DNA of 64,000 nucleotides. It comes from Candidatus Bathyarchaeota archaeon. Lineage in GTDB: Archaea > Thermoproteota > Bathyarchaeia > 40CM-2-53-6 > CAVXDP01. This document shows, piece by piece, positions 1,306 through 24,568 of the stretch (position 1 is its first letter; the number at the start of each line of letters is the position of its first letter). Location: positions 574-64,573 of the forward strand of contig CAVXDP010000011.1 in assembly GCA_963760485.1 (NCBI GenBank). The letters are read 5' to 3'. The notes beneath the pieces are model-generated. The model was not told where the DNA came from, made no database searches, and worked only from the letters and a program-made list of their open reading frames with translations. Made by a program: the position numbers and the translations under genes.

Positions 1306-1802
1306 CTAAGAATCAGGTTTTGGATAAGACGATATTCTGATTATTTTGTCAAAGGCGGCCCTGTATACGTATAGAAGCGAGCGCACACTCGAGTGAGGCG
1401 GCGGATGCCAAGACCAACTCTTGGGGTCTTCCTTCAGGTGCTGCAGTTGGGGACGAGTGCGTAATCTATCTAGTAATGTATTATAAGTGCATGAACCCGA
1501 ATGGTCCAAGTGGATATGAGCGTTTCTCCCAAGTCATTCCCTTCGCGCGTTTCATGTCATGTAGGGATACTAGGCACTGTTGAACACTGATTGTATCCAT
1601 AGCAGCAACGTACGGATGGGTTATGGCTTGGTTTGCAGCAGGCGCTTCAATGATCCCGGGGGTAGTTGTAGGACTTCTAATACCGAAATTGAAGCCTAGA
1701 TAGTTAACATATGAGCCAATTTGAGTTCTTGTTGCGATCGAACTGAGCAACTAGTAGAAAGGAGAGAGATTCCAAGGATTCTTCCCCTAACGTGTAGGCC
1801 AA

Positions 1803-2300
1803 TTATTTTGTGTGTGTGCGCACCAGGGTATACACATTCGATGGAGAGCATATCACTACCTGCTGCGTGCATAATCTCTTTCGAGTGCTGCCTACGTACT
1901 TGTCCCAGACTTCGTTGGTTTGCTTTGAGTCTTGCTGTCTGGTTGGTGCACGAATAATTTTGTACTTTACCTTGAATGTCATGTCTAATCTGGTCTTTCT
2001 CTGGCCGAGCCTCGTTAACCTGTAATCACCAATTTCATCATTTTCCTGTCCAGCTAGATCCAAGTGCCAAGCGTTCGGTGGGCGCAGTGCCACGATACGA
2101 ACGGCACTGATGTTCTTGTCTTTTCGTTTGTGTGTGGAGACGTAGATGACTCGTCGTGCCGTCTTCTGCAGAATGATTCTCTTGATACTTGAACCCCAGA
2201 TCTTGTTGTCATCCTCTTTGAAGTCAACACACCAATCGTAAACGAACTTTAGAGGAGCGTTGATTACTTTCGATACGTGAAACGTATGACTCCCGGCCAA
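1803..2300 (-). CDS. SRPBCC (START/Bet v1/polyketide-cyclase-like) domain protein
   Basis: 165-aa ORF. The motif VINAPLKFVYDWCVDFKEDD is typical of SRPBCC ligand-binding proteins. Confidence 0.45.
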   Translation of the reverse strand: MAGSHTFHVSKVINAPLKFVYDWCVDFKEDDNKIWGSSIKRIILQKTARRVIYVSTHKRKDKNISAVRIVALRPPNAWHLDLAGQENDEIGDYRLTRLGQRKTRLDMTFKVKYKIIRAPTRQQDSKQTNEVWDKYVGSTRKRLCTQQVVICSPSNVYTLVRTHTK

Positions 2301-2369
2301 TTGTTGGATTCCTTACCCTTCAGATGAATGTAGATGATGCTTGAGGCTTTAAGGTGAACTCAAGGTGTG

Positions 2370-2408
2370 ATAGAAAGAGCTAAACAGTATTGTGAAGGTC
2401 CATCATTT
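2370..2408. repeat. 39-bp direct repeat, copy A (atagaaagagctaaacagtattgtgaaggtccatcattt)
   Basis: Matches copy B at 5167..5205 with 3 mismatches in 39 nt. Both copies are intergenic. Confidence 0.7.
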
Positions 2409-2666
2409 TCTACAGGCCGTAGATGTTACATCTATTTTCTCATGTCACGTTTGTTTGACCAGATATGGCATCATGTGCTTGGTGGAACGTTGGTTAGAGA
2501 CTGTTTCGCCTACGACTAAGACATAGATATGGCAGACATTCAAGTCGATACGGCTCGCAATTCACATGAGCTTCGAGATTTGGCACGGTCCATCCAAGAG
2601 AAAGGAAAGTATACAAGAAGGTTGCAAGCAGACTCCTAGCAAGTTGATGATGGAGTTTAACTGAAA

Positions 2667-4693
2667 GTGCCACATGGAACGTCAAATCAATATCGAAGAC
2701 CGAAAAAGATCACAGTGCATACTACACGCAGCAGTCACGTGAATGAACGCAAGCGAACCGAGAAAACACTGAAGGAACAGTACCCAACGCTTCGCGCGAT
2801 AATTGACAGCGCCGATGCACTAATCTTTTCTGTGGACACTCAATACTGCTATACGAGTTTTAACAGTGCTCATGCTACTGTGATGAAGAAGATTTATGGC
2901 AAGAATATCGAAATGGGCAGAAGCCTACTGGATTACATGACTGTGCCAGAAGATCGTGAGAAGGCTAAGCGAAACCTCGACCGTGCACTCGCTGGACAGA
3001 GTCTGGTGGAGGAAGCATATTCTGGAGAGGAAGGGCTGTCCCGACGGTATTTCCAAGTTTCACACTACCCCATCAGTGAAACAGACGAGAATGACATAGG
3101 CGTGGCAGTGCTAAGCAAAGACGTTACCGAGCTCAAGAAGGCTGAGGATGCACTACGAGGAAGTGAGAAGAATTACAGGATTGTTAGCGAGAATATCCCG
3201 GTGGCGGTTTATGCAGCGTTACCAGATGAACACTCTACAAACACATTCACTGCTGGAAGAATCGAGGAACTGACAGGTTACTCGACAGAAGACTACGTGA
3301 AAGACCAATATTATGGTCCAAAATTATTCATAAAGACGATAGAGAACATGTTCTTAAACAATTGAATGAAGATCTGAGAAACAAGACTCCTTTCGAAATA
3401 GAGTATCGGATAATTGCGAAAGATGGTTCTGTCAAGTGGATAAGAGACAAAGCGTCACCTATGCTCAACAATAATGGAGAAGTCACTGGAATCAACGGAT
3501 TCATGGAAAACGTGACTGAGCGAAAGAGATTGGAGGAAGAGCTGAAGAAACACATCGCGCGTCTGGAAGAACTAGTTGAAGAACGCACTGCGAAGCTTAG
3601 GGAAAGCGAAAGAAGATTCAGGGAAATAGCTGAACTCCTACCAGAAAGCGTGTTCGAAACAGATGAGAAAGACAATATCACTTTTTTCAACAAGACTGCA
3701 GTCGAAACATTTGGTTACACTGCGAATGAAATTGCGAATGGATCAATGCACTTCAAGCGGTTGCCCCCGAAGATAGAGGAAGAGCTGAAGAGGATATTCG
3801 AAGGGGAATGAGTGGTGAACATCTGGACCCATTGAATACGAGGGGCTGAGAAAAGATGGCACAACGTTTCCTATGATCGTCGGCTCAACGCGCATCTTTC
3901 GTGATGGTAAACTGGTAGGTCGGCGAGGTTTTGCCGTTGACATTGCTGAGCGGAAACAGATGGAGGAGAAGCTTCGAAAAGCTGAACGGTTTGCGGGAAT
4001 TGGTGAGGCGGCTGCCGATGGTTGGACATGACCTGCGTAATCCTTTGCAGGTTATTGTTAACAGATTGTTCTTGGGAAAGAGAGCTGTTGAGAAATTATC
4101 CTCACCCTATTCTGAGGTTGCAGAGAAACTAGGTTTGACGGAATTGTTTGCTGAGCTTGAGTATCAGACAAGTTACATGAATAAGATTGTTTCTGACATT
4201 CAGGATTACGCGAAACCAGTAACGCCTGAGCTGGTCAGTAAGAGAATAAACAAGCTTGTCAATGAGACATTCTCAACGATTCCAGTTCCAGCCAACGTGA
4301 AAGTAAGCAGGGAGATTGACGAGAACCTTCCAGAGTTGATGGTGGATCCTGGGTTGATGAGGCGAGCCTTGACAAACCTGATTAGGAATGGGATTCAGGC
4401 TATGCCTAAGGGAGGCAAACTCACCGTGAGAGCATCAAAAGCAGATGAAGCGGTCTTCATCAGAGTCCAAGACACGGAGAAGGCATCCCCAAGAGAACTT
4501 GGACAAGGTCTGGAGCCCCCTATTCACTACGAAGGCTAAAGGTGCGGGACTCGGTTTGGCAGTCTGTAAACGCTTGATCGAAGCCCATGGCGGCACAATA
4601 AGTGTTGAAAGTAATGTAGGCGAGGGATCAACGTTCACGGTTAAGCTACCGTTAGACATCTTGCGCGACCCTAACGAGCCGGTAGTTGAGTAA
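2667..4693 (+). pseudogene. multi-PAS sensor histidine kinase (PAS-PAS-HisKA-HATPase_c), disrupted by >=5 frameshift/stop lesions
   Basis: Four consecutive ORFs (2667..3365, 3362..3811, 3931..4539, 4445..4693) plus an unlisted in-frame segment ~3828..4018 together encode a contiguous PAS/PAC-HisKA-HATPase architecture. The HisKA motif is MVGHDLRNPLQ and the HATPase_c motif is [39 protein letters not shown]. Frame changes occur near 3325, 3809-3835, 4017 and 4445-4539. Confidence 0.75.
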
Positions 4694-5059
4694 AGAGGGG
4701 TTTTTGGGATTCTCCCTGAATGTATAGGAGATTATTCTGCGTGTGAAGAGGTGGACAATCTCTGGTGCTGTAGTGAGAAGAGTTCTCCGCGGGTGGTAAG
4801 CCCGAGCGCGCACTGACTAGTACGGGTCGGACGTGTGAATGGTCAATACTCTGGAACGGTTCCTTAGATGCACTTTTCTAGCGAATAGAAGACTGCAGCG
4901 TCTAATTCAACCTGAAAAATGGAAGGTGAAACCTGCCAAGTAGCTTTGAATGAAGACGGGTCAATTCCATGTGAAACTAGATACGAGAAGCGGCTGGGAC
5001 AGCGCTAGAAGTGTGATGAACGCCCAGGACAGTTGACTCAATGTAAAGCGGTGTAGATC

Positions 5060-5167
5060 AAGGAAGGAGAAAGAGAAAGGAGAAGAAGGGAGGGAGGAAA
5101 GAGAAAAGAGGGGAAGGGAAGGAGAGGGGGAGAAAGGAGGAGAAGAGAAGAGAGAAGAGAAAAGAAA
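5060..5167 (+). repeat. 108-nt uninterrupted polypurine (A/G only) tract, GA-rich low-complexity DNA
   Basis: Direct reading shows positions 5060..5167 contain only a and g on the plus strand. The tract directly abuts repeat copy B. Confidence 0.9.
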
Positions 5168-5205
5168 TAGAAAGAGCTAAACAATACTGTGAAGGCCCAT
5201 CATTT
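5167..5205. repeat. 39-bp direct repeat, copy B
   Basis: 36/39 identity with 2370..2408. The two copies bracket the decayed histidine-kinase locus. Confidence 0.7.
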
Positions 5206-5216
5206 ATGATCTTCCA

Positions 5217-5873
5217 TTGCCAGATGTGAACTCCCGCGAGCCTGTGAAAGTCGTTTCATTTGACATTGATGGAACTCTAGCTGACGAAAGATTCAGTCGC
5301 CTGGTTTGGGAAGAAGTGATTCCTAGGATTTATGCACGGAAAGAAAACATTGATGCGGAAAGTGGCAAGAGACATGTTTACAAAGAATACTCCAAGATTG
5401 GGAAAGAAAGACTCGAGTGGTATGATATACAATATTGGTTCCAACATTTCGGGCTTAATCAAGATTGGAGAGAGCTCTTGGAGAGTTACAAGCATGAAGT
5501 ACACCTCTACCCTGAAGTACCCTCGGTCTTGAGGAAACTGGAACCCCATTACGTTTTGATTGTAGTTACAAATGCAGCCAAGGAATTCGCGAAGATTCTA
5601 ACTAAGGACATTGAGAATTACTTCTCGCATATTTTCTCGGCTACAAGCGACTTCAAGGTGCTGAAGAGTTCACCTCGCCTCTACGAATTGGTATGCGAGC
5701 GGTTGGGAGTCACACCTGACGAGTTAGCTCATGTAGGTGACAATCGCAAATTCGATTATTTGGTTCCGAGAACCCTGGGAGTAAAGTCGTATCTCCTTGA
5801 CAGGACAAGAAGCCTATCAAGCGAGTTCATACTTAAGAATCTCCAGGATTTCTGCAGTCGAATCGGCGTCTGA
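5217..5873 (+). CDS. HAD-superfamily hydrolase
   Basis: Motif I VSFDIDGTLAD is present. The core motifs VTNAAKEF and VGDNRKFD are typical of HAD phosphatases. Confidence 0.6.
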   Translation: MPDVNSREPVKVVSFDIDGTLADERFSRLVWEEVIPRIYARKENIDAESGKRHVYKEYSKIGKERLEWYDIQYWFQHFGLNQDWRELLESYKHEVHLYPEVPSVLRKLEPHYVLIVVTNAAKEFAKILTKDIENYFSHIFSATSDFKVLKSSPRLYELVCERLGVTPDELAHVGDNRKFDYLVPRTLGVKSYLLDRTRSLSSEFILKNLQDFCSRIGV

Positions 5874-5879
5874 ATAGCG

Positions 5880-6426
5880 GTGAGATATTGCTACAACATT
5901 CGCATCATCCAAATTCCAGAACCAAACAAACTAAAGATCAAAGAGGCTATCTCAGTAGTGGTACAAAGTATTGGAAATTACCATCAGAAATGCAACGAGA
6001 TCAGATTTCCAGCAATCGAGAAGTTAGCGTCAGAACTTGTCGAGGATATCGATAATACTGAAGGAATCAATGCCTCTCTCTGTTTACTAAGAACTTGCTT
6101 CGCTCTTTTAAGACAGTGCTAATTCGAATTTCTTGATCGCAGAATCAGAAGAAGCCATTGTCGGGTTCATACACTTCACAACTAGAAGAACACTCTTGCA
6201 TGATGGGCCATCTGGCTTGATCGATGAAGTCGTTGTCTCAAAGCAATATCGCGAAAAGTCTATTGGAAAACGGCTAGTTCTTGGCGGCATTTAAGAAATG
6301 TAAACAACTAGGGTGTTGCGAAATTGAGGTGAGTACTGAAAAGAAGAACAAAAAAGCGATAGAGTTCTACAGAGCTTGTGGTTTTCAAGAGCGTGGTATA
6401 CTCTTGGAGATGGACATTGACGAATA
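5880..6426 (+). CDS. GNAT family N-acetyltransferase (two frameshifts)
   Basis: Three collinear frames encode the GNAT N-terminus, then the core (EAIVGFIHF…VVSKQYREKSIGKRLV), then the C-terminus (EFYRACGFQERG). Frame changes lie near 6120 and 6295. Confidence 0.5.
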
Positions 6427-6489
6427 GGCGACCTTCACATGAGGCTTTTTGAGCTTTGACTGTGCTAGTACTCCAAGCCGTCTAGTTGT

Positions 6490-6807
6490 TCATCTATGGC
6501 GACTGTTTCTCCTATCTCGAGCATCAGTCTTTTGCCAGTCTCTCTTTCTTTGTGTTTCGATTCTCGCTCTTCCAGATTTGAATGACTGCAGATCCCTTCG
6601 GTACTCATGAATCTGAGCATAGAAACCTGAATAATCGCTTTCACTTTTCGAGAGGGAGAGAATCAGCTCGTTCAGTTTCAATCTAGCCCCGTCAGAACCA
6701 TTCTCATCCCAAGCTCGAGAATAGACATCATAGGCAACACGGAACTTGAAATCATTCGGCCTGTCGATCTCCAACTTCGACACAGGTTTCTCCGTATTTT
6801 CCGTCAT
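6490..6807 (-). CDS. hypothetical protein
   Basis: 105-aa ORF with no recognisable domain. Confidence 0.25.
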   Translation of the reverse strand: MTENTEKPVSKLEIDRPNDFKFRVAYDVYSRAWDENGSDGARLKLNELILSLSKSESDYSGFYAQIHEYRRDLQSFKSGRARIETQRKRDWQKTDARDRRNSRHR

Positions 6808-7176
6808 GAAAATTGAGCTCTCGGACTATGGTACCATATACTCAAGGTATTAAATGCATCCACGGGAGAATCAACGGACAAAATCATCTTCCGCAAACCC
6901 ACGATCTATGACGAGAGTCGATATATCGATTTTTTGAATAATCCTTTTTATCCGCTCGGTACATTAATGTTCCACGTGTGAGTTGATAATCATGACGGAC
7001 CTAAAGAGTTACCTTAGATGCAAAATGATTGATAGGTTCGGACACATTCCAATGCAGAGAGCAAAGTTTCACACTATCGATGAGTTACTGCTTGGATGCT
7101 GAGCAACGGTTCTTCCAACGACATTTGTCACAATACGCAAAACCTTCTCAACATGGTCCAAGTTCCGGACCACTAT

Positions 7177-7965
7177 TCACTGACGTGGTTGAAAAATGAA
7201 TGTGCAATACTCGTGTCCTTTGGTCATGCATTCTTCTTCCTTTACGAGAGTGGGTTGACCAAACACGCTACTCAATAGTCCCTCCAGATATCCTCTGAAG
7301 AAGTGGCTTCCAACCTGTGTCATCTTGCCGTCTATGCGAAGACATTCGAAGAGATCGTGCACCCTTATCTTGCCAGTTGCCCTAGTTTCATCGAACTCCA
7401 GTATCTCAGGTATTCCCCAGCCCTTAGCCACCCTTCCCGACAAGAAGACGTCTAACACATTTTTTCCTGTTAAGCCATACTTATCTCTGATAGCCTCCAC
7501 CTTACTGGTCCCTGCAACTAGGCCCATATGATACAACACGGAAGAAGCAGGAGGACCGAACATTTCGCGAAGTTGATGAAACATGGCAGATATTGTCCGA
7601 ACTGTAAGGATGATACATCTCTCGTCTATGGCTAGGACAGGGAAATGAACTTCATCCACGATTAGGCCTTCAATCTTCGCTTCATGAATCTTAACTTGTG
7701 AGACCACATTGAGCTTACTAACCTCCTCAGTCAAGCGTTCTGGGTCAATATCGGCCTCAGTGATGTCAGCAATGAAGCTGAAGAGGGCGGTAGGTTTTTC
7801 AGGATACGCTGTTACAAATCCAGAGCATAGATTGATGCCGAGTCTTGCTAGCTCGGTTGAGGTTTCTGCCAGTGCCCCTTTTACGTTCTTCATTTCAATT
7901 TGAAACTCAACTAGCCGTCTGTTGGGAGAGTATACGCCCATGAAGAGGTCTTTCTTATGTAGCAT
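7177..7965 (-). CDS. ACT-domain plus V4R-like (hydrocarbon-binding) domain protein
   Basis: The N-terminal ACT-like segment is VEFQIEMKNVKGALAETSTELARLGINL. The C-terminal half resembles V4R small-molecule-binding domains. Confidence 0.45.
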   Translation of the reverse strand: MLHKKDLFMGVYSPNRRLVEFQIEMKNVKGALAETSTELARLGINLCSGFVTAYPEKPTALFSFIADITEADIDPERLTEEVSKLNVVSQVKIHEAKIEGLIVDEVHFPVLAIDERCIILTVRTISAMFHQLREMFGPPASSVLYHMGLVAGTSKVEAIRDKYGLTGKNVLDVFLSGRVAKGWGIPEILEFDETRATGKIRVHDLFECLRIDGKMTQVGSHFFRGYLEGLLSSVFGQPTLVKEEECMTKGHEYCTFIFQPRQ

Positions 7966-8283
7966 ACAAAGCCCCTAAACATAGTACTCAGTACATGTCT
8001 GTATACCTTTTCTTTAGCTTTCTTACTTGTTCTCCTGCTACTCCAAGGGAACGTGCAACACCATCAATAGGAGAACGCTTGGCCGGTTTCAATGAGAAAA
8101 GGTCCATGATCATTGCCAGAGTCAGCTTGAAATGGGGAACGTACTAGGCACACTGCCACAGATCTCGAATGTAAAAGCAAGCTCTCTTTCAGAACCGTCT
8201 CATTACTAGAGTCATTCATATACTTCCTGCTTGCGAGGCTGTCACCTTCCCCTTTTCCCGCAGGTCACATTCAGCTCAACTAT

Positions 8284-8481
8284 ATGACACATCAAGTGTT
8301 GTTCGAGGAAAGAGGTGCATCCATGGTGCATAAGATTACGATTACGGAGGAAGTTTACAAGAGAATTGAAGCTCAAGCTCAAAAAGAAGGCGTCTCAGCT
8401 TCAAAACTAGCTGAGAAACTTCTCTTGGAAGTCATAACGCCGAAAGCAATGTCTTGTCCCAGATGTGCCTTCAGATTCTGA
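8284..8481 (+). CDS. small ribbon-helix-helix (CopG-like) protein
   Basis: 65-aa ORF. HKITITEEVYKRIEAQAQKEGVSASKLAEKLL has an RHH beta-strand/helix pattern. Confidence 0.3.
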   Translation: MTHQVLFEERGASMVHKITITEEVYKRIEAQAQKEGVSASKLAEKLLLEVITPKAMSCPRCAFRF

Positions 8482-9021
8482 TTAAACGACCGGCAAACAG
8501 AATTTGTCATTCGTCGTATTGCTGAGGTAGAGATCACATTTCTCAGGTTCATTGAACCCACCCTCATATGGGAAGCTTGGTGGATTGCGCAAGTGCCTAC
8601 GCGATTAAGCTTGCTCCAGCCTCTACCACATGACCATATGCGCTGGAAAATATTGAATGAAGATGCTTCTTGTTGAATGAGTGACTGTGGGATGAGGAAT
8701 ACCGCAGATACTCGAGTTCGATCTGCGGATCAAGTATCCACCCCCTTCTCAAGTTCAGGCCATGGCGATCGCCATTAATTCTCAACCCAATAAAGAAATG
8801 TCCAAAATCATCTTGTTTCTCGATTACGCGATATTCTATTCTTGTTGCAATGTCGTCGCCATTTACGTACGTAAATGCCTATGTAAGCATATGCCCGCAA
8901 CAATAATGTCGTTAACAATTGAGTCGACAACGATTATGTCGTTACTTGACATCGTTCACACTCCAATTTATTGGAGACAGTGATATAGCAATTTGTTATC
9001 GAGCGAAATGAGCATGCCGAG

Positions 9022-9459
9022 TTATGCCAATTCTCCCTTTGTAATGTCTTTGATCCTTTCACGCCAGTAGCTTGCGAGCATTTCGAGCTTGTTTGAGAAG
9101 ATGTCACTGAGCTGGGCTGGTTCATTTCGACGAACCCGGCTTAAGAGCCCACTTCGCATCATGGCCTGCCAGGTTTGACTTAGTGTCCGCGCTGAACAAT
9201 GTCTTTCCTTTATGATCTTAGGCGCCAAGTCCCTGTACAACTCGACGCGATAGGTTTTCATACGGCTCATTTCACGGAGAATCGCTTCGGCGAGTTGTGC
9301 CTTCCTAGGATTAAACGGAAAGAGCATAGTACAGAATACTCTCAGGTCTCCTATGCTGGTTCTCTGGGCATCGATCTTTGCGGTGATGTATCCTCTCCTT
9401 TTCATATAGTCTGCCCAGTACTCTTTGTCTTTCTTCGTCTCACTAAACCGCGAAGCCAA
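9022..9459 (-). CDS. hypothetical protein
   Basis: 145-aa basic protein with no family recognised. Confidence 0.3.
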   Translation of the reverse strand: MASRFSETKKDKEYWADYMKRRGYITAKIDAQRTSIGDLRVFCTMLFPFNPRKAQLAEAILREMSRMKTYRVELYRDLAPKIIKERHCSARTLSQTWQAMMRSGLLSRVRRNEPAQLSDIFSNKLEMLASYWRERIKDITKGELA

Positions 9460-9726
9460 GTGTGCCTACCTTACCCCATGGTGTGGTATGGTGGGATATC
9501 TTAGGTTTTGTCCCACATGGTGGTAATTGGGCCATTCCCCCACTAAAACATCTAGCTAACCCACGAGCCAAACAAATAATGCCTATGAATTATCCCATAG
9601 GGTGGATATGTCGCCCACAAAAAAAGTCCGATATATCGCACTCAAGTCGTGTATCTGCCCTCAGGGGGCTTCATTGGTTGTGTCTGGGCTGGCAAAGGTG
9701 GGAGAGGCGGGGGTATATTCAGAGTC

Positions 9727-10062
9727 TTAGATAGAAGAATAGCTTCGGCCATGGACGCATTCGAAACTGCTTGAACTACAGCTATGGGAGGCGGCTTTTG
9801 CTGCCTTGCTTTCATCCATCATCTTCTTGATCTCGGCACTGTCTCCTGTGATATACGCTCGCCCCCTAACACTGATTTGAGCGATTGATGGAACAAAGTT
9901 GACGGTAAATACAAACGGAGCCTCAGCCGCAACGTCTGATTTCTCTTCTAACCCCATGATATTGATATTCACATTAATGTGAATCTGAGGCGGCATCGGC
10001 TTGCTTACATCCCACAAGCGTTCTCCCGACAAGTTCGTAACAGAAACGTTCACAGTCAACAT
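9727..10062 (-). CDS. hypothetical protein
   Basis: 111-aa ORF with no family recognised. Confidence 0.25.
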   Translation of the reverse strand: MLTVNVSVTNLSGERLWDVSKPMPPQIHINVNINIMGLEEKSDVAAEAPFVFTVNFVPSIAQISVRGRAYITGDSAEIKKMMDESKAAKAASHSCSSSSFECVHGRSYSSI

Positions 10063-10072
10063 CCCGAGTCAT

Positions 10073-10384
10073 CTACCGCCTCGTACGAGTACCCACCCGC
10101 TTTAAACCTTGCTTCCCCAAACGTTTTTTCCTCCTCCTACCACGAACTAGCTTCCGAGACATACTTACGCTACGTTTTGTCCCAAACTTCCCCCTGCGCC
10201 AAGACAACTCCACAAGGAGTCTCTCTCCAGCTATCTTCACAGCAACATCGTCCCCCTCCAAAAAAGGGAAGCTGGAGTCATCCGTGAGTTTTGTCGGAAG
10301 ATAGATTCTAGGAGAACGGTAAACAATTCCTTTGTTCCCACGCTTTCTAGCGACCGCCATCTTCGTAATGATCTTCGTAACCAT
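10073..10384 (-). CDS. AbrB/MazE-like (swapped-hairpin) DNA-binding protein, putative
   Basis: IYLPTKLTDDSSFPFLEGDDVAVKIAGERLLVE resembles an AbrB/SpoVT-type barrel. It is followed by a highly basic R/K tail. Confidence 0.3.
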   Translation of the reverse strand: MVTKIITKMAVARKRGNKGIVYRSPRIYLPTKLTDDSSFPFLEGDDVAVKIAGERLLVELSWRRGKFGTKRSVSMSRKLVRGRRRKKRLGKQGLKRVGTRTRR

Positions 10385-10629
10385 TTACATTACCTTATAC
10401 ATAGACATTTACTTATGACTATAAAAGGCTTGCCCACGCTGAACACCTGTCGCAATCAAGAAAACAGAAGATCAAAAATTCTATGCCGAAACTTCAAAAT
10501 CGAAAGAAAACGGGAGAAGCCTATGGAAAGCGCCTGCCGATATCTGAGGGTGACACTTCCAACAAGTCTCGTAGACGCAGATTCGCTGGACTTGAACGTA
10601 GGTAACGAGAGCCGGGAGGATGTATGGGT

Positions 10630-10983
10630 CTATTCCAGTTCTGATGCTACTAGGTAGACGCCCGAAATGATGAAGAAAATCAGGGCTAATGGTGCGAACC
10701 AGGAGACAAAGCCTGATACCAGAAGTATCATCAGGAACACGATGTCAATCCATCCAGTTCTAGATTTCGGGAGCAGTTCTCCAGGTGCCATGCCCAGTCG
10801 TCTCGCGACATAGAGAATTGCGATCGCACTTGCAGCGAGCAGGGTTAGGTGGAAGAATGTGGCAACGAATAGAACTCCACCAATGGGTTTTGTGCCACCA
10901 CCATATGGGACTGGAATTCCCTTATACATGATTGGCATCGCCAGAGTTTCTAGGGCTAGGGCGATGGCCAAGACTACGACCAC
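10630..10983 (-). CDS. integral membrane protein (3-4 TM helices)
   Basis: Hydrophobic 117-aa ORF. Confidence 0.35.
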   Translation of the reverse strand: MVVVLAIALALETLAMPIMYKGIPVPYGGGTKPIGGVLFVATFFHLTLLAASAIAILYVARRLGMAPGELLPKSRTGWIDIVFLMILLVSGFVSWFAPLALIFFIISGVYLVASELE

Positions 10984-11781: not shown

Positions 11782-11973
11782 AAACGGCTCGCTAGCTCTT
11801 CCCCTTCGTACCTAACTTCGTTTCTAGCGAAGCCGGATTGTTTGATATAAAGTTTGTCCGATTGATATCGATTGCCAGAATTGTCTGATGTTCCCACGCC
11901 TGATGACCACCTTCAAGCAAGTTTTTTATATGAAAGGAACGCTTTCAGTCGCAATTTCGGGAGCGTGAGGAAA

Positions 11974-14128
11974 ATGACATTCGAAACCACCGTGTTGTGG
12001 GTTATAATCGGTACAGCTCTGGGTGCGCTTCTGTACGCTGCGCTTTTGGCACGCCATACTCTAAAGGAGCCAACTGGAACTGGCAAAATGCTTGAAGTTT
12101 GGAAAGCAATATCTGAAGGGGCTAATGCCTATCTCAAGAAGCAATTCAGGTCAATAGTTCTGATAATCGCTGTTCTCACAGTTGCACTTTATGCTTCCGC
12201 CGCTCTCGTGGGAGGGTCACCTTCGATCTCTATCGGAAGAGCAGCAGCGTTTCTGATGGGTGTGACTTTTTCTGGACTCGTCGGCTATCTTGGAATGAAT
12301 ATGGCAGTCAAAGGAAACATTCGTGTCACCGAGGCCTCACGCAGAAGTTTTCGGGATGCCCTAAGGATCGCCTACAGATCAGGAACAATAACTGGAATGT
12401 TGACAGATGGCCTAGGGCTTTTTGGAGGCACCTTGATCTTCATGATATACTTCAAGGATGCTCCACAGGTTCTATTGGGCTTTGGCTTAGGTGGTACACT
12501 GATCGCCCTGTTCATGCGAGTTGGTGGAGGAATCTACACAAAGGCTGCAGATGTTGGAGCTGACCTTGTTGGCAAGGTTGAGAAAGGCATTCCTGAAGAT
12601 GACCCCCGCAACGCAGCCGTAGTCGCTGATCTAGTAGGAGACAATGTAGGCGACTGTGCCGGGATGGCGGCGGATATCTTCGAGTCATACGAGGTCACAA
12701 TAGTATCAGCCATGATACTTGCCCTAGCTCTACTGCCTTTCGACGTGAAATGGATCATGTTTCCACTTATGGTCAGAGCTATCGGTGTAGTAAGTACGAT
12801 AGTTGGAACCTACTTTGTCTCTCTGTGGCCTCAGAGTCTTACTAAAGGTGATGCCTTCAAAGCCATGGACTTGTCATATGACCTCTCCGCGGCAATATCC
12901 GTTGTGAGTTTCTTCTTACTCGCAGAATTCTACGTTCACGATCTCAGAGTTTTTGTAGCAACTGCCGTTGGAATATTCCTAGCGATTGGATTCAACAAGA
13001 TAACAGACCACTTCACAAATCCCAATAAGAAACCCATTGATGAACTTGCACGGGCATCAAGAACAGGCGCTGCAACAGAGATACTCGGCGGTTTGTCACT
13101 GGGGTTCGAGGTAACCGTTTGGAACCTGTTGATAATATGCATCACGATATTAATCTCAGTCTCCGTTTTCTCGGGTTCAACAATCGTATTCATGATGTAT
13201 GCCATCGCTCTTTCTGGAATAGGCATGCTTACCCTAACCGGTAATAACGTCTCAATGGATGCATTTGGCCCCATAGTAGACAATGCCAATGGTATAGGCG
13301 AGATGGCTGGTGTGGAGCCTGCCGCCAGGAAGATCCTGGCCGATCTTGACGCATCTGGGAATACCACCAAAGCGGCGACGAAAACAATAGCTATTGCATC
13401 GGCTGTAATAGCAGCTGTTTCGTTGTTCGGTGCGTTTACCGAGACAACAGGGCTGCAAACGATTGGACTGAACATTGCTGACCCAATTGTCTTCGTTGGA
13501 TTACTGGTTGGAGGAGCTCTACCGTTCTTGTTCAGCTCAGGCGCGATACGTGCGGTAAGTAGAGCTGCAGGATCTATCATCGAAGAAGTGAGGACGCAGT
13601 TCAAAGTCCCCGGTGTGATGGAGGGAACTGTTAAACCTGATTACGCAAAGGTCGTAACAATCTGCACCTCAGCAGCCCAGAGAGAACTGGTAGGTCTTGC
13701 GATCATGTCAATACTCGCGCCACTGGCGATCGGACTCTTGCTCAAGCAGGCGAGCACTAGGAGCCTTTCTAGCAGGCATAATCGTGACAGGCCAGCTACT
13801 AGCAGTTTTTATGGCATCATCAGGAGCCTCTTGGGACAACGCCAAGAAGAAGATTGAAGATGGCTATTATGGCGGAAAGGGTTCTGAAAACCACAAGGCA
13901 TCAGTGACCTGCGACACTGTGGGCGACCCACTGAAAGACACTTCTGGCCCTGCTCTGAACCCCATGATAAAAGTCATCAACCTGATCTCGCTCATCTTCG
14001 CGCCACTGATCATCAAACTCGCCAGCCAACCACTGATCTCCGTACCTCTCGGCATTGTGTTTGTAGTGGCAATTGGAATTGCGGTCTGGTACGGAAAGCG
14101 AGAAGGCGCATTCACAAAGATTCAATAG
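11974..14128 (+). CDS. hppA: membrane-bound proton/sodium-translocating pyrophosphatase (one frameshift near ~13745)
   Basis: The 661-aa ORF and the following 143-aa ORF ([31 protein letters not shown]…[18 protein letters not shown]) are collinear V-PPase sequence. The likely start is the ATG at 11974, which is preceded by GTGAGG. Confidence 0.85.
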
Positions 14129-14269
14129 CAGAACACGGCAAGACAGCCTGGTTTGGAGGGGCCCAATACCCCAAAACATGGCCCATTCCAACGGCTCTAA
14201 ACGTTATAAGTGAAATCAATTCCAAGGTACGACTAAACAATCAGAGCATTACTGGCAGTGTGTACGAAG

Positions 14270-15564
<1,295 letters not shown>

Positions 15565-19280: not shown

Positions 19281-20243
19281 CTAGAGCGTGTGGAGGCCCA
19301 TAGTTGTTTTGAGAACGTCTACGTTGATTTTTCCGGATGTATATGTGGCCCCAGTTCGGATGTTGTTTATTGAAACAACAGCTGGTGCAAAAAGGTTTGG
19401 ATCTATGTTGTAGAATTCGTAGTTGGCGGCTTTTAGGATGTCGTAGAATGGCTTGCCGTAGTCTTTGGCAGTTGAGGATGGAGCATTTGTTACATAGTCC
19501 TTCAGTTTCTCATCGTCCTCAAAATCTACTGTGTAGTAGGCTTCTCCTCCATAGTAGAGGGCGTCGTTGGTTCGCCCCATTGCCTTCTGATCCTTGGGAT
19601 GGATTGGGGCTATCGGTGCGTATCCACAACCATAGAGAATTCTCTTGATGTCAAAGCCGATCTGCATGAGCTTGTGAATTCCTGTTTCTACGATTCTTCC
19701 CGAGATCTGAATGGATCCACAGATCGATGTTGTCGGGGCCACCATCAAAACCAAGTTCTCAAAAGTAACTCCGCATTTCTTGGCCAGGTAGTCGATCGCA
19801 CATTCTGTCGGGTTTGAATTCGATTCAAGGACCAGCACAGCTCTATCGGATTTGTCTCTGTATTCAATCCTCTCGTAGACTTCTTTGGGTTTCAATGCAA
19901 GTGCTCGTCCGGGGCCCGACCCCATTGCAAAGTAGTCTTCAGTTTTTATCTGCCATCCAGCAAGTTGCGAACCCAGTGTAGAGATAGCGGGGTAGGCAGT
20001 CTCAACAAATATGCTTGGCAATGAAATGTCTCCGTACTTGGAGTATAGAATTGAAGCTTTACCTAGTCCAGCCAGACATAGCTCCGTCATAGCGATGCCA
20101 GCGCTGTATCCTCCTGGTGCCTTCACACCAGCGTCAAGAATCGTTGCACCCTTAGAATCTTTTTCAACGGTTACCCCGAGGCGCTCTTTGTCCCTCACGA
20201 TTCTTTCTACGACTCTCATGGCAGACACGTTGAGGCTTAACAT
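19281..20243 (-). CDS. mch: N5,N10-methenyl-tetrahydromethanopterin cyclohydrolase
   Basis: 320-aa protein matching Mch along its whole length (…GVKAPGGYSAGIAMTELCLAGLG…DYFAMGSGPGRALALKPKEVYE…). Confidence 0.85.
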   Translation of the reverse strand: MLSLNVSAMRVVERIVRDKERLGVTVEKDSKGATILDAGVKAPGGYSAGIAMTELCLAGLGKASILYSKYGDISLPSIFVETAYPAISTLGSQLAGWQIKTEDYFAMGSGPGRALALKPKEVYERIEYRDKSDRAVLVLESNSNPTECAIDYLAKKCGVTFENLVLMVAPTTSICGSIQISGRIVETGIHKLMQIGFDIKRILYGCGYAPIAPIHPKDQKAMGRTNDALYYGGEAYYTVDFEDDEKLKDYVTNAPSSTAKDYGKPFYDILKAANYEFYNIDPNLFAPAVVSINNIRTGATYTSGKINVDVLKTTMGLHTL

Positions 20244-20249
20244 GGATTA

Positions 20250-21089
20250 CTAGTCCTCCAACTTGTCGATATATGACTCGCACCACTTCAATTGTGGATT
20301 GCTCGAAACCTTCACTGACAGACGCCCATTTCCATTCTCATTAATATCGCCTAAGAATGAGTAGAATGGCCCGAGAAGTTTCTCTTCTGCAACCTTGACC
20401 TTGTCTCGCATGTCTTCGAAGACGAAACTTGGTAAAACTGATATGAGATTTCCGAGCATAACAACCTTGCCTGCAGTCATCTGAGCGCCTGCCCTTCCCT
20501 CGCAGTCTCCTTCGACTAGAACTGTTCCATCGGTCATGTGAATTCCCGGATACATTCCGACGTTTCCTTTTACTCTTATCAGTCCGCCTCTCATCCAACA
20601 TCCAACTTCTACCCCGGCGTTACCTTCAATCACAATGGATCCAGCTTTCATTCCATTTCTGCTTCCACGATACGCTGAACCAACAAAATCTCCAGCATTT
20701 CCATGAACCTCGATAATTCCGCCGTTCATTCTCGATCCTACCCATGACCCTGCGTCGCCTTCGACAACAATTGTTCCACCAGACATTCCTTCTCCGAGAT
20801 GCATTCCCACGTCTCCCTCAATTTGAATGCCGCCAGCTGTCATTCCATGACCTATTCTTCGAATCTTCTTCAGATCTCCGAGAACTCTTATTCCAAGATC
20901 CTTCGGTGAAGTGTCGGCATTACCTTCCAGAGAGAAGATCTCCTTCAGCCGACTTTTCCTGTTTCCTTCCCAGAGGTCAAGTGAGAGAATCTCCTCATTC
21001 GATTTGCCGCTGAGAATGTCAGGTGTGATGCATGAACCATCCACGGGGACCGTTAGAGGTCGTATGAGTCTAATTGTGAGCTCTGTCAA
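20250..21089 (-). CDS. fwdC: formylmethanofuran dehydrogenase subunit C
   Basis: 279-aa protein with repeated GxxGxxMxGG beta-helix motifs (…MTAGGIQIEGDVGMHLGEGMSGGTIVVEGDAGSWVGSRMNGGIIEVHGNAGDFVG…) typical of FwdC/FmdC. Confidence 0.8.
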   Translation of the reverse strand: MTELTIRLIRPLTVPVDGSCITPDILSGKSNEEILSLDLWEGNRKSRLKEIFSLEGNADTSPKDLGIRVLGDLKKIRRIGHGMTAGGIQIEGDVGMHLGEGMSGGTIVVEGDAGSWVGSRMNGGIIEVHGNAGDFVGSAYRGSRNGMKAGSIVIEGNAGVEVGCWMRGGLIRVKGNVGMYPGIHMTDGTVLVEGDCEGRAGAQMTAGKVVMLGNLISVLPSFVFEDMRDKVKVAEEKLLGPFYSFLGDINENGNGRLSVKVSSNPQLKWCESYIDKLED

Positions 21090-22789
21090 CTAGAAGACCC
21101 TGCCACAGTGTCGATTCTCTTTGATGCCAAGAGATAGTGCTCGTCGATGGGATAGTTGCTCATCTGCATTGTGTAGTAGTCTTCGAACTTTCCCTTGAGG
21201 TCAGTGAGCATCTTTTCATGGATGTCTCGGGGTACTTTCGGATCTACCCAGAGTGTTTTTCCAGGAACAGTGTCTACAATCTCGCCATTCTTGACGAGGA
21301 TCTTTCCTTCCTTGATTGTGTATGCAGCCTTTCGAAAAGCCCGTCGTACAAGTTTGTATTGTTTCGAGGGGTTGATCTTGGTTGGATCGATTGCGTATAT
21401 GGAGATGTCCCCATCTGCTCCCAGTCCTAGGTGGCCCTTTTGCTTCAACCCCAATGTTTTGGCTGTGCCAGCTCTGGTTGCGATTGCAATATCGTAGAAG
21501 GAATATTCCCGATCGAGCCCTGGGAGGTTTAGCCGTCTGTGTGCGCTCTTGTTCAGTTTCTCGACAATCTTCAGTCTTGCTTCCTTGCTCATCAACCAAG
21601 CTATGACCCGCGGGTATTCTGTGAACGGTCCCGCGTTCGGATGGTCTGTTGTCATCTGGACGCGCCAAGGATCTTTTATCATCAAGGCAAGTTCGAGCCC
21701 TATGCCCCATTGTATGCAGTTTACATAGTTGCTCTTCTTGTAGTGAAATGGGACTATTCCACCTCCGTCTTCCACTTCCACATCTGTGTTGGCCCATTTG
21801 TTTCCTGAAATCAGGTAGAGAAGGAATTGGAAGCCTCCGTCAGCGGTCATAGTCGTTGTATCTGTAAATATGATCTGGCCTAGGTCTATGTCAACGTGCT
21901 CATGTTTGTTTACATAGTCAGCTATCTCAGGTGCGCCAGAACCGACGTTGATCCAGTCGGTTCCACTTCGTCCTGTAAACTGAACGTGGGTTATGTGAAT
22001 AATCGGTCTTCCACCATGGTATAGGTCGCGTACACAGTCCATTGTCTCTATTGTGGTTTCATAGTTTCCGGCTCTTGCTAGATTGTTTGTGTGAACGTGA
22101 ATTGAGTGAGGTAGTTTCAGATAGAGGTTTACTTTGCATAGGCCACGAATGATTTCTCTTGGAGTGATGTTGAATCTGGGTACGGTATCGTCTAGACTTG
22201 TAACATACTTTCCCCAGCCCCAGGCCTCGACTCCACCCGGATTGACGAGTTTTATCGCGTAGCCTTTTGTAGCTTTCATCATCCATGCTACATAAGCCGC
22301 ACACTCGTCGAATTTTCCGTCTCTCAAGTATTCCATGACAAACCAATTGTTTCCAAGCAGTGGAAAGCATCCTTTGTCCAGCATCGGAGTGTCATTCAAT
22401 TCTTCATGGGTATGCCTGGTCTTCATTGGTGGCGTGGCCGGTTCGAAAACAGTTGTGTACCCCATTCTAGCGTACCGATAGCCGGTGGTAAAGGTTGATG
22501 GGATTGATCTGCCAACACCAGATCTTGTATTAGACGTTCTTGTCTCTACGTCTTTTTCGTGGTCTTCGGGTCGAATCATTCGGCCTAAGTTTACCTTTGA
22601 TCCCGCGATGTGAGAGTGAACGTCGACTCCACCAGGCATGACGATCATGCCAGAGCCGTCAACTATCTCAGCTGACGAACCAACGCTATCTACAATGACC
22701 CCGTTTCTTATGGCGATGTCCATCTTTTCTCCATTCACGTTGTTCAAAGGGTCGTAGACGTACCCGTTCCTCACCAAGAGTTCAGGCAA
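21086..22789 (-). CDS. fwdA: formylmethanofuran dehydrogenase subunit A (amidohydrolase)
   Basis: 567-aa protein. The N-terminus LLVRNGYVYDP…EKMDIAIRNGVIVD…MPGGVDVHSHIAGSKVNLGRMIRPED is diagnostic for FwdA. Confidence 0.85.
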   Translation of the reverse strand: MPELLVRNGYVYDPLNNVNGEKMDIAIRNGVIVDSVGSSAEIVDGSGMIVMPGGVDVHSHIAGSKVNLGRMIRPEDHEKDVETRTSNTRSGVGRSIPSTFTTGYRYARMGYTTVFEPATPPMKTRHTHEELNDTPMLDKGCFPLLGNNWFVMEYLRDGKFDECAAYVAWMMKATKGYAIKLVNPGGVEAWGWGKYVTSLDDTVPRFNITPREIIRGLCKVNLYLKLPHSIHVHTNNLARAGNYETTIETMDCVRDLYHGGRPIIHITHVQFTGRSGTDWINVGSGAPEIADYVNKHEHVDIDLGQIIFTDTTTMTADGGFQFLLYLISGNKWANTDVEVEDGGGIVPFHYKKSNYVNCIQWGIGLELALMIKDPWRVQMTTDHPNAGPFTEYPRVIAWLMSKEARLKIVEKLNKSAHRRLNLPGLDREYSFYDIAIATRAGTAKTLGLKQKGHLGLGADGDISIYAIDPTKINPSKQYKLVRRAFRKAAYTIKEGKILVKNGEIVDTVPGKTLWVDPKVPRDIHEKMLTDLKGKFEDYYTMQMSNYPIDEHYLLASKRIDTVAGSSS

Positions 22790-22793
22790 TCAA

Positions 22794-24097: not shown

Positions 24098-24568
24098 TGG
24101 GACCCACTTCCTGCCATATGACCTCTTGATAAGACTCTCCAGTCTTGCGACTTCTTGGTCGAGTGCAGGAGAAACTTCCGCGTCGATACCCTTCAGAGAT
24201 GGCATACCACTGCCATGAGTTTGAGGATCCGTTACACGGTTCGCCCATGGACCGTATGGAATGAAGGCGATGCCTTTTGGCAATGTCTGTTTTGCCGTGT
24301 AGGCTTTCACCACCACGTCTCCAAAATCTGTCTTCACCTTGATGTTTGCACCTTCTGAGATGCCTAGGAGGCTTATGTCCTCGGAATTCAACTCGCACAT
24401 CGCAGCGCTTTGAAAATACTGTTCCGAAAACTTGCCGAGCTCCTTACCTCTGCCCTGCCCTATGGTTCTTCCAGAAATGAGTTTGACTTTCACGAGAGCC
24501 AATTTGCGAATCCTATCCGGAACGTTGCATATGGTCAAAGGATTGATCATTCTTAAGATTTGCTTCAT
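24095..24568 (-). CDS. fwdD: formylmethanofuran dehydrogenase subunit D (molybdopterin dinucleotide-binding domain)
   Basis: 157-aa protein with the typical FwdD segment (…GRTIGQGRGKELGK…KVKTDFGDVVVKAYTAKQTLPKGIAFIPYGPWAN…). It is the first gene of the fwdDBAC-mch operon. Confidence 0.75.
   Translation of the reverse strand: MKQILRMINPLTICNVPDRIRKLALVKVKLISGRTIGQGRGKELGKFSEQYFQSAAMCELNSEDISLLGISEGANIKVKTDFGDVVVKAYTAKQTLPKGIAFIPYGPWANRVTDPQTHGSGMPSLKGIDAEVSPALDQEVARLESLIKRSYGRKWVP

Follow-up and report, generated by a model that had tools for sequence, protein, structure and literature searches.

Two copies of a 39-bp sequence bracket a disrupted sensor histidine kinase gene in a Bathyarchaeota genome. 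What the repeated sequence is, and how the kinase came to lie between its copies, was examined in a 64-kb stretch of one contig, referred to below as the window, and in related loci. The features of the locus are collected in Table 1.

Table 1. Features of the kinase locus, in window positions.
Feature	Position	Strand	Basis and remarks
Left neighbour, hypothetical protein, 165 aa	1803..2300	-	ORF; no Pfam match; 147 aa in the relatives (L001/L013)
Repeat copy 1	2370..2408	+	ATAGAAAGAGCTAAACAGTATTGTGAAGGTCCATCATTT; G18, T21, T30; displaced duplicate of the HAD upstream element
Leader, 5' non-coding part of block	2409..2666	+	258 nt; missing from empty sites; no Rfam match
Multi-PAS sensor histidine kinase	2667..4693	+	Pfam matches; six frame changes as assembled
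Kinase PAS_4 domain	about 2805-3137	+	Pfam
Kinase PAS_3 domain	about 3371-3505	+	Pfam
Kinase PAS domain	about 3614-3796	+	Pfam
Kinase HisKA domain	about 4018-4215	+	Pfam E=1.1e-5; H-box MVGHDLRNPL
Kinase HATPase_c domain	about 4345-4657	+	Pfam E=4.5e-14
3' non-coding part of block	4694..5059	+	366 nt; no Rfam match
Purine tract	5060..5166	+	3' end of block; continuous with the purine-rich start of copy 2
Repeat copy 2	5167..5205	+	ATAGAAAGAGCTAAACAATACTGTGAAGGCCCATCATTT; A18, C21, C30; resident HAD upstream element
Right neighbour, HAD-superfamily hydrolase	5217..5873	+	Pfam Hydrolase/HAD_2

The repeated sequence

The first-pass annotation had placed the two copies at 2370..2408 and 5167..5205 with 36 of 39 positions identical, and both the coordinates and the identity are exact; the mismatches fall at positions 18, 21 and 30. 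The pair is the sole direct repeat of at least 25 nt within the 64-kb window, and 100 dinucleotide-preserving shuffles gave no match, in agreement with the earlier view that a chance origin is unlikely. The edges of the homology are sharp, the sequence beyond either edge aligning no better than shuffles. A longer duplication that has since decayed is ruled out by the absence of residual homology past the 39 bp on both sides, and the leader shares no homology with the region downstream of copy 2. The junctions of the occupied allele read CCATCATTTTCTACAGGCCG and GAGAAAAGAAATAGAAAGAGC.

The differences between the copies all share a codon phase and leave the amino acids unchanged in the plus frame (IERAKQYCEGPSF) and in the minus frame, which suggested that the 39-mer might be coding sequence. 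This reading was rejected because the element sits in a 119-bp divergent intergenic spacer at sites that lack the kinase, because T18 of one such site (L001) would give His in the plus frame and a TAA stop in the minus frame, and because the variants in two outgroup loci (L021 and L015) are not codon-like. Single-stranded DNA folds of both copies with their flanks, on both strands, gave z-scores of -1.2 to +0.7 and no stable hairpin, and Rfam, searched with the block and the repeat at gathering thresholds and at E up to 1, returned no ncRNA match.

A codon-degenerate scan for the 39-mer had no match in 185,579 species genomes or in viral contigs and found one contig only among 241 M metagenome records, the empty-site contig L001. 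The first-pass annotation had considered that the 39-mer might be a widespread promoter motif without association with indels. It does prove to be a promoter-region motif, but one confined to a single gene, and an indel is associated with it.

The empty site in related lineages

Comparison of the locus across relatives, as the first-pass annotation had proposed, showed that the kinase block is missing from four related lineages (L001 and L013, which are 99.7% identical, L014 and L021). In each, the layout is left flank, one 39-mer, right flank, with both flanking genes 119 bp apart; the two genes are divergently transcribed. The window aligns with L001 over 1773-2408 (94.7%) and 5167-5877 (97.6%), with no alignment in between. 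The single 39-mer of L014 is identical to copy 2. L021, whose HAD protein is 77% identical to that of the window, has the same neighbours and an empty site. The left neighbour has one extra base in the window relative to both L001 and L014, and its C-terminus is altered.

The element precedes the start codon by about 50 nt in HAD orthologues with 97%, 88%, 77% and 65% amino acid identity. Its 16-mer core, ATAGAAAGAGCTAAAC (at most two mismatches), occurs among all the loci fetched only upstream of HAD orthologues; for the 65%-identity orthologue it is present on six contigs, in one copy and likewise at a spacing of about 50 nt. It was not found upstream of kinase homologues in the loci fetched. 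As orthologues down to 65% identity keep this core, the repeat belongs to the upstream region of the HAD gene itself and was duplicated around the insertion. Conserved upstream of the HAD hydrolase gene, the 39-mer is a putative promoter element. Two proposals of the first-pass annotation, a duplicated regulatory element and the footprint of a recombination event, are therefore essentially right, the second because the empty sites of relatives hold one copy. Since related lineages lack the block, we regard the locus as a strain-level insertion of the ordinary kind, unusual in two details. Synteny could be followed no further in GTDB genomes, where the nearest HAD relatives (Bathyarchaeota and Thermoplasmatota MAGs) are 39-48% identical and have no neighbours in common with the window.

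The inserted DNA

The insertion measures 2,758 bp and consists of the 258-nt leader, the multi-PAS histidine kinase, 366 nt of non-coding DNA and a purine tract of 107-108 nt; only 731 bp of it lies outside the kinase. Earlier spacings of 257 and 474 bp between the repeats and the kinase were each one base off, the actual values being 258 nt (2409-2666) and 473 nt (4694-5166). A T5 run (4701-4705) lies 8 nt past the kinase stop. Both junctions of the block are clean and its composition is host-like.

Counted with A5167, the purine tract has 108 nt, of which 57 are A and 51 G (47% G), with no pyrimidine, and 8 of the first 10 nt of copy 2 are also purines. The tract is unique in the window, where the next longest run has 20 nt, and no such run longer than 23 nt occurs in 116 kb of related loci. 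The order of A and G looks random. A microsatellite was ruled out, as the 28-nt periodicity is only weak, and so was an H-DNA mirror repeat, as mirror symmetry does not rise above that of shuffles. An exosome tail was also ruled out, since the tract is pyrimidine-free and published archaeal exosome tails contain all four nucleotides (PMC1635327).

State of the kinase gene

The kinase is spread across at least five ORF pieces on the plus strand. Six frame changes were mapped (near 3310, 3743, 3824, 4015, 4476 and 4487, the last five called against the L002 homologue), and the A5 run at 2697-2701 is a possible seventh; the first-pass annotation had counted at least five frame-disrupting lesions. 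Its description of the gene as decayed holds only in part, since the same assembly frameshifts essential genes; after frame correction the pieces contain no internal stop and no nonsense codon. Enolase, the ATP-dependent DNA ligase and the H+-PPase (H+-pyrophosphatase), which are essential, and a GNAT gene are interrupted in the window by short-run indels like those of the kinase, which implies that the assembly itself carries indel errors and that part of the decay of the kinase may be assembly error. Frameshifts are denser in the kinase, which has 6 within 2 kb, than in the other coding sequence, where about 52 kb hold 5-9 (P <1e-5). The kinase is probably, though not certainly, a pseudogene, and the frameshift 'pseudogenes' of this assembly should not be taken at face value.

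The best homologues of the kinase are 50-55% identical at the amino acid level (top match 55% among 5.8 billion proteins), and the sole 100% match to its N-terminal part is the window's own contig; no parent or donor copy was identified. In L002-L006 the kinase homologues are followed by a 147-aa response regulator. A tblastn search of the window with response regulators from homologous kinase loci had no match, which rules out a decayed response regulator downstream of the kinase.

Allele states of the two copies

At positions 21 and 30 copy 1 carries T/T, matching the outgroup HAD promoters of L021 and L015; C/C is common to copy 2, L001, L013 and L014. The copies differ at 3 of 39 sites where 0.25 would be expected (P=0.002), and the flanks hold private substitutions of the window at 4 of 1,269 sites. 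On the evidence of these substitutions, the 39-bp pair is not a fresh target duplication; from the contrast of T21/T30 in copy 1 with C21/C30 in copy 2, either the duplication is old or copy 2 has been overwritten since. If the insertion came before the change to C21/C30, the empty sites of L001 and L014 require a long-lived polymorphism with recombination or two precise deletions. The sequences also indicate that recombination is active at the HAD locus: the HAD gene of L014 is a mosaic, with 5 differences in its first 360 nt and 55 in its last 308, and the segment following HAD is replaced in L001. The sample of occupied alleles is one, from an assembly with evident indel errors.

Comparison with mobile elements

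The first-pass annotation had seen no transposase between the copies, and a Pfam scan agrees, finding no transposase, integrase or RT domain there; nor were integrase or transposase domains found in the block or in those ORFs of the first 12 kb that were checked. The window ORFs scanned (Pfam/NCBIfam) included no integron integrase or reverse transcriptase, and the larger ones are housekeeping genes. An inverted-repeat search of 2250-5300 found no terminal inverted repeats pairing the block ends, the only inverted pair at the block borders being a near-palindrome inside the 39-mers. The proposal of a MITE-like or cassette-like unit thus fails, there being no terminal inverted repeats, no attC-like hairpin and no second copy in the window.

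The locus resembles the target-site duplications of transposons, MITEs and casposons in that a direct duplication with sharp boundaries brackets the insert and the empty site in relatives is unduplicated. However, those duplications measure 2-15 bp and this one 39 bp, the block is single-copy in the window and lacks terminal inverted repeats, transposase and casposase, and what it carries is a kinase gene of an ordinary chromosomal type. With integron cassettes, including those of archaeal integrons (PMC9668308), it shares a single-gene unit beside a promoter in an archaeal metagenome-assembled genome. It differs in having no attC-type imperfect hairpin, no integron integrase among the scanned ORFs and no array, the kinase block standing as a single unit; moreover its repeats are 39-bp target copies, not attC sites. 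A BLAST search of plasmid and phage records with the whole block had no match, and two exact strings from within it had none in viral contigs; on these searches a plasmid, phage or virus origin of the block was ruled out.

Proposed insertion by repair of a staggered break

The explanation that we favour, with about even confidence, is that 2,758 bp of non-mobile DNA was inserted into the HAD spacer and that 39 bp were duplicated by break repair. In the ancestral layout the hypothetical gene (minus strand) and HAD (plus strand) would have diverged across a 119-bp spacer with one element. The non-mobile piece, comprising leader, orphan multi-PAS sensor kinase gene, 3' non-coding stretch and purine tract, would have entered this spacer in the lineage of the window or in a lineage that donated the allele. 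Staggered-break repair is our best guess at the mechanism. The target may have been opened by opposite-strand nicks 39 bp apart and the single-stranded gaps filled in, which would account for the 39 bp on both sides; the target-site duplication would thus have arisen by break repair or template switching and not through a transposase. The upstream region of each neighbour would thereby have stayed intact, the probable reason for the survival of the insertion, and copy 1 would now direct a HAD-type upstream element into the kinase. We infer that the event is old, with copy 1 a fossil of the earlier promoter allele T21/T30 and the functional copies, copy 2 included, since moved to C21/C30. Occupied and empty alleles would have coexisted from then on; the flanks would have undergone homologous recombination, and some lineages may have lost the block through its repeats. 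The presence/absence polymorphism of genomic islets is comparable: occupied and empty alleles occur among close relatives, and short direct border repeats can mediate loss, although such deletion explains the loss and not the origin of the duplication.

We know of no archaeal or bacterial enzyme or repair pathway documented to leave a 39-bp duplication around a 2.8-kb non-mobile insert, and the mechanism is therefore read from the anatomy of the locus only. Plain break repair leaves the purine tract unexplained. It is also a point against this explanation that all mismatches lie to the right of the 17-nt identical block and that copy 2 is the resident allele.

Alternative explanations

These last two observations are what an att-type integration would predict. 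A small circular DNA carrying a diverged 39-bp copy would have integrated by one crossover within the 17-bp identical block, giving attL as copy 1 (resident left, donor right) and attR as copy 2 (donor left, resident right). The circle could have been an integrative element, either non-autonomous or decayed, or else a fragment that had become circular, and the crossover site-specific or homologous. Direct repeats of about 40 bp flanking a block, with a single copy at the unoccupied site, are classic att anatomy, shared with attL/attR of tyrosine-recombinase integrative elements; the mismatches at 18, 21 and 30 are all right of the longest identical block, as a single crossover predicts; copy 2 has the resident-type allele of L014 and copy 1 carries 'foreign', outgroup-like states. 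One recent event would cover everything and deletions would be unnecessary. Unlike such elements, however, the block is only 2.76 kb long, with 731 bp of non-kinase DNA, and encodes neither an integrase nor Rep nor any further element gene. Its target lies upstream of HAD and not in a tRNA gene, ARAGORN finding no tRNA in the window; integration at tRNA or tmRNA genes is usual for att-type elements, not obligatory. The viral 39-mer scan, the viral exact-string search and the plasmid and phage BLAST are all empty, and as the 16-mer is missing upstream of kinase homologues, nothing would explain why the HAD element should be carried by foreign DNA. We consider an att-type remnant unlikely.

With the opposite polarity, a kinase flanked by two copies would be the older state in this group and the empty sites would be precise repeat-mediated deletions of a dead gene, by slippage or recombination. 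The ancestral states of copy 1 fit this reading, under which the duplication would be older than the ancestor shared by the functional copies of the window, L001 and L014; the element left by a deletion via the 17-nt identical block would resemble copy 2, as is seen; and deletion bias against pseudogenes, which is well established, would favour it. But the outgroup L021 (77%) has both neighbours and an empty site, the 65% orthologues have one copy, and at least three independent precise deletions would be required. An initial insertion with duplication is still needed, only its timing being different, and we hold the reversed order to be distinctly improbable.

The purine tract invites a third reading, in which a kinase transcript ending in an untemplated tail of purines alone underwent reverse transcription at a nicked HAD promoter. 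The pyrimidine-rich 3' end of the nick (complement of ATAGAAAGAG) would anneal to the tail as primer, and cleavage of the second strand 39 bp away would create the duplication, as in LINE-type target-primed reverse transcription. Like a LINE-1-type processed pseudogene, the kinase is a gene copy in the sense orientation with an ORF full of frameshifts, and its pyrimidine-free 108-nt 3' tract adjoins a long, non-canonical target duplication (of variable length in the LINE-1 type) that opens with 8 purines in 10 nt, as microhomology in priming would predict. The random-like order of A and G also looks untemplated. Against this, the tract is a mixture of A and G and not poly(A), and extra non-coding DNA flanks the ORF: 366 nt separate the stop and T5 run from the tract and 258 nt precede the ORF. 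A search of 5.8 billion proteins gave no parent gene (best match at 55% amino acid identity), no reverse transcriptase is present among the window ORFs scanned (Pfam/NCBIfam), and the divergence of the copies is too great for a recent event. To our knowledge, no LINE-type retroposition is known in archaea. Nor does tailing by the exosome supply the tract, with 0 of 108 pyrimidines against the four nucleotides of archaeal tails (PMC1635327). Retroposition is accordingly very improbable. A related and less specific reading is that a ruler-type integrase or a repair complex might have cut at both edges of a protein-bound promoter.

That the kinase block was mis-joined into the HAD promoter from a mixed population, with the repeat an overlap artefact, is scarcely credible: the assembly has indel errors in essential genes and the window resembles a population consensus in which private substitutions are nearly absent, but artefactual overlaps are normally identical and these copies differ at three positions, in a pattern matching real alleles from other samples, with clean junctions and host-like block composition.

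Significance of the locus

The locus is a clean, well-polarised case of archaeal gene gain within a tight divergent promoter region in which neither neighbour was disabled, the route of gain being duplication of one gene's conserved upstream element around the insert. The displaced copy 1 is a dated fossil of an older promoter allele. Neither the 39-bp duplication nor the purine tract of 108 nt, which looks untemplated and lies at the 3' junction, fits an insertion pathway described in prokaryotes. Recurrence of such junctions in this genome or in related ones would define a new insertion mechanism, either filler synthesis during break repair or, much less likely, retroposition; were the latter true, the locus would hold a target-primed 'processed pseudogene' of LINE-like type in a non-eukaryote.

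The 39-bp repeat and empty sites in related lineages

The two copies of the 39-mer reported by the first-pass annotation are borne out: they agree at 36 of 39 positions, no shuffle of the window gave a match to the repeat, and the 64 kb contain no other direct repeat of ≥ 25 nt. Flanks aligned over 60–250 nt beyond the 39-bp edges match no better than shuffled sequence; the similarity ends exactly at these edges.

Metagenome contigs were scanned with a third-position-degenerate 39-mer and a single contig, L001, matched. In the orientation of the window it has the left flank of copy 1, one 39-mer and the right flank of copy 2; BLAST aligns window positions 1773–2408 (94.7%) and 5167–5877 (97.6%) with no match between. 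Further alleles were reached through close homologues of the adjacent HAD-superfamily hydrolase (HAD) gene. The site is empty in L013 (ENA sample; 99.7% identical to L001), in L014 (a separate lineage; left flank 96%, right flank 91.5% identical to the window) and in L021, which has the same left neighbour and a HAD protein only 77% identical. In the empty-site contigs the HAD gene (+) lies directly beside the hypothetical gene (−) and is transcribed away from it, across a spacer of 119 bp in L001. Measured against this ancestral arrangement, the window has thus gained 2,797 bp by insertion: 2,758 bp of new DNA and a 39 bp duplication. We consider an insertion with duplication of the HAD element to be very probable. 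The comparison with relatives proposed at first pass thus finds one 39-mer and no kinase block at all four loci.

Features of the locus and split genes of the contig (window coordinates)
Feature	Position	Strand	Description
Left neighbour	1803–2300	−	hypothetical gene
Indel in left neighbour	~1885		one base more than in L001 and L014
Copy 1	2370–2408		39-mer
Leader	2409–2666	+	258 nt
Sensor kinase	2667–4693	+	PAS_4, PAS_3, PAS, HisKA, HATPase_c; split over several reading-frame pieces
3′ stretch after kinase			366 nt without ORFs; T5 run 8 nt after stop codon
Purine tract	5060–5166		merges into A5167 of copy 2; 108 nt: 57 A, 51 G, 0 pyrimidine
Copy 2	5167–5205		39-mer
HAD gene	5217–5873	+	HAD-superfamily hydrolase
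GNAT acetyltransferase	6133–6427		2 pieces
H+-pyrophosphatase	11872–14128		2 pieces
Enolase	14258–15564		3 pieces
ATP-dependent DNA ligase	51305–53087		2 pieces

The 39-mer as an upstream element of the HAD gene

Searched for with ≤ 2 mismatches in the window and 23 fetched loci, the core ATAGAAAGAGCTAAAC is confined to sites upstream of HAD orthologues, always ~50 nt from the start codon; these sites include six contigs whose orthologue has another left neighbour and 65% protein identity. It was never found upstream of the kinase homologues in the fetched loci at the same threshold. A second conserved block, CATCATTT/CATCGTTT, ends the 39-mer and is separated from ATAGAAAGAGCTAAAC by a variable 15-nt spacer. 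The 39-mer thus belongs to the HAD gene as its conserved upstream element, and position and conservation point to a putative promoter or operator. Together with the empty sites, this supports the earlier suggestion of a recombination footprint or duplicated regulatory element. The HAD protein itself is only 39–48% identical to those of the nearest GTDB genomes (Bathyarchaeota and Thermoplasmatota MAGs).

All three differences between the copies are synonymous in one frame on each strand. A coding function was rejected: one frame of the L001 variant reads as His and the other as a stop, and the outgroup variants do not vary as codons would. Within the 39-mer, ACAGTATTGT (copy 1, 2384–2393) is the exact reverse complement of ACAATACTGT (copy 2, 5181–5190), each being one step off the perfect palindrome ACAGTACTGT; this could be the site of a dimeric regulator, or a coincidence.

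The inserted block

The block is close to the host in base composition (GC3 0.47 vs. 0.48–0.56) and has no terminal inverted repeats. As noted at first pass, no transposase lies between the copies; integrase, transposase and RT domains are absent from the block and from the ORFs checked across the first 12 kb, and there is no tRNA in the window. The whole block has no match in plasmid and phage records by BLAST, and two exact strings from within it gave 0 matches to viral contigs. With no inverted repeats, a single copy and no attC fold, the ‘MITE-like or cassette-like’ unit is unsupported. The 3′ stretch has no Rfam match and no response-regulator remnant. No second such purine tract exists in the window, whose next longest run measures 20 nt; the tract is missing from all empty sites, and the related loci (116 kb) have no run > 23 nt. 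Along it, A and G follow one another in near-random order (63 runs vs. 54 expected), with a weak 28-nt periodicity and no mirror symmetry above that of shuffles.

The kinase and indel errors in the assembly

The closest kinases, 50–55% identical, are encoded in sediment metagenomes, where a response regulator follows each of them; the 3′ half has 76% DNA identity to the closest homologues. The N-terminal PAS_4 (2805–3137) is 62–68% identical to PAS_4 of bacterial LuxR-type and response-regulator proteins (Desulfuromonadaceae and Chloroflexota MAGs), much closer than to any archaeal kinase found; this similarity suggests a PAS module common to both domains.

Alignment to the homologue on L002, the contig with the closest kinase, locates one-base indels at 3743, 3824, 4015, 4476 and 4487, and tblastn a further frame change near 3310; a simple codon-usage HMM recovers these same frame changes. 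The density, six in 2 kb vs. five to nine in ~52 kb elsewhere in the window, is 20–40 times higher (P < 1e-5). After frame correction there are no nonsense codons, which is unexpected under long neutral decay. Other genes are also split (see table) at non-homopolymer or short-run sites of the same character; these include essential or conserved genes, so that indel errors must be present in the assembly. Were the block carried by just a fraction of the population, errors at the kinase could locally be more frequent. The earlier ‘decayed’ label is supported in part: the dense frame changes speak for it, the lack of nonsense codons and the indel errors elsewhere against it; on balance we lean towards true pseudogenization. 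Frameshift ‘pseudogenes’ in this contig call for read-level confirmation. The conclusion on the repeat is unaffected.

Age and allele history of the duplication

In a three-way flank comparison of the window, L001 and L014 (1,269 sites) only four substitutions are private to the window. Had the duplication occurred on the window branch, ~0.25 differences between the copies would be expected; there are three (P = 0.002).

Bases at the three positions that differ between the copies (L015, like L021, is an outgroup)
Position	Copy 1	L021	L015	Copy 2	L014	L001/L013
18	G	A	G	A	A	T
21	T	T	T	C	C	C
30	T	T	T	C	C	C

Copy 1 agrees with both outgroups at positions 21 and 30, where the derived C is common to copy 2, L001, L013 and L014; the copy 1 allele is therefore older than any sampled functional copy. 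Copy 2 equals L014 across the entire 39-mer. The duplication may be older than the C21/C30 change, with the functional copies, copy 2 included, having gained C/C by descent or by recombination halted at the heterologous block. Or else a more divergent lineage may have supplied the block and copy 1 together.

The locus shows clear signs of active recombination. The L014 HAD gene (2608–3264) differs from that of the window at five positions in the first 360 nt and at 55 in the last 308 (~18%); it is a mosaic, which points to a divergent segment imported by homologous recombination. After the HAD stop codon the window (5878–6427) and L001/L013 diverge completely (L001 reverse strand 1308–2041); L001 has a 194-aa zinc-ribbon gene in place of the GNAT gene, of which only the last 13 codons (6386–6424) are common to both. 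Judged from these alignments, this is a second replacement event beside the same HAD gene and the locus is a rearrangement hotspot. A ~60-nt element, GGATTCTTCCCCTAACGTGTAGGCC...TGTGTGTGTGCGCACCAGGGTATACACA, occurs at 1776–1836 and, partly inverted, on L002 (3610–3672); the window has one copy, the L001 contig stops at precisely this point, and the element could represent either a dispersed repeat or the scar of a rearrangement.

Mechanism of insertion

The junctions have a sharp 39-bp target duplication around non-mobile DNA, relatives have empty sites, and the purine tract at the 3′ junction merges into the purine-rich start of the repeat. Staggered-break capture is our tentative mechanism, with at best an even chance of being correct. 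The target would be opened with a 39-nt stagger, a DNA segment captured or copied in through break repair or template switching, the 3′ junction made with purine filler or microhomology, and the gaps filled in. The duplication may coincide with the conserved element because the 119-bp divergent spacer would tolerate only events that keep a complete element beside HAD and leave the left gene's upstream DNA untouched.

The main rival, an att-type single crossover with a circular donor bearing a diverged 39-mer, would predict the mismatch layout exactly and in a single event; however, integrase and element genes are absent and there is no reason why foreign DNA would carry a HAD-specific element, so that we judge it unlikely. 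The reverse polarity, with every empty site a deletion, is less probable again, given that the outgroup L021 is empty and an initial duplication would still be required. Target-primed, LINE-like retroposition of the kinase is consistent with its orientation, with the purine tract at the 3′ end and with a duplication that is long and begins purine-rich. It is nevertheless highly improbable: archaeal exosome tails in the literature include all four nucleotides (PMC1635327), unlike the purine-only tract, 366 nt separate the stop codon and T5 run from the tract, 258 nt lie upstream of the ORF, parent gene and RT were not found, and the copies are too diverged for a recent event. An assembly artefact is barely credible because the two copies bear different alleles, seen in other samples.

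Genomic setting and relation to known systems

The window encodes formylmethanofuran dehydrogenase, Mch and Ftr. Methanogen-type C1 genes (FwdA, FwdB, FwdD-like, Mch, Ftr) are clustered at 19281–24568 and 31478–32392, with F420-glutamyl ligase and RimK-like genes also present; the source is thus an archaeon with the H4MPT Wood–Ljungdahl branch. The codon-usage HMM finds almost no coding signal at 1241–1765, 5836–7207 and 7964–10630, which contain small ORFs only; an RHH_5 fragment lies at 8284–8481. The first 11 kb look like a low-density, variable island adjoining a dense core with fwd, mch and ftr.

In its behaviour the locus resembles a target-site duplication or att-flanked islet. It differs from IS and MITE elements (no inverted repeats, single copy in the 64 kb, 39-bp duplication), from integrase-type integrated elements (no integrase among the ORFs scanned, no tRNA target), from integron cassettes, which exist in archaea (PMC9668308), in having no attC fold, no array and no integron integrase among the ORFs scanned, and from processed pseudogenes in its tail composition and the missing parent gene. 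The most fitting class is a repeat-flanked insertion polymorphism whose duplication is unusually long and whose junction holds an unexplained purine tract. The locus is ordinary strain-level gene-content variation; its value is as a clean polarized example with a putative fossil promoter allele and two junction features that merit a genome-wide check.
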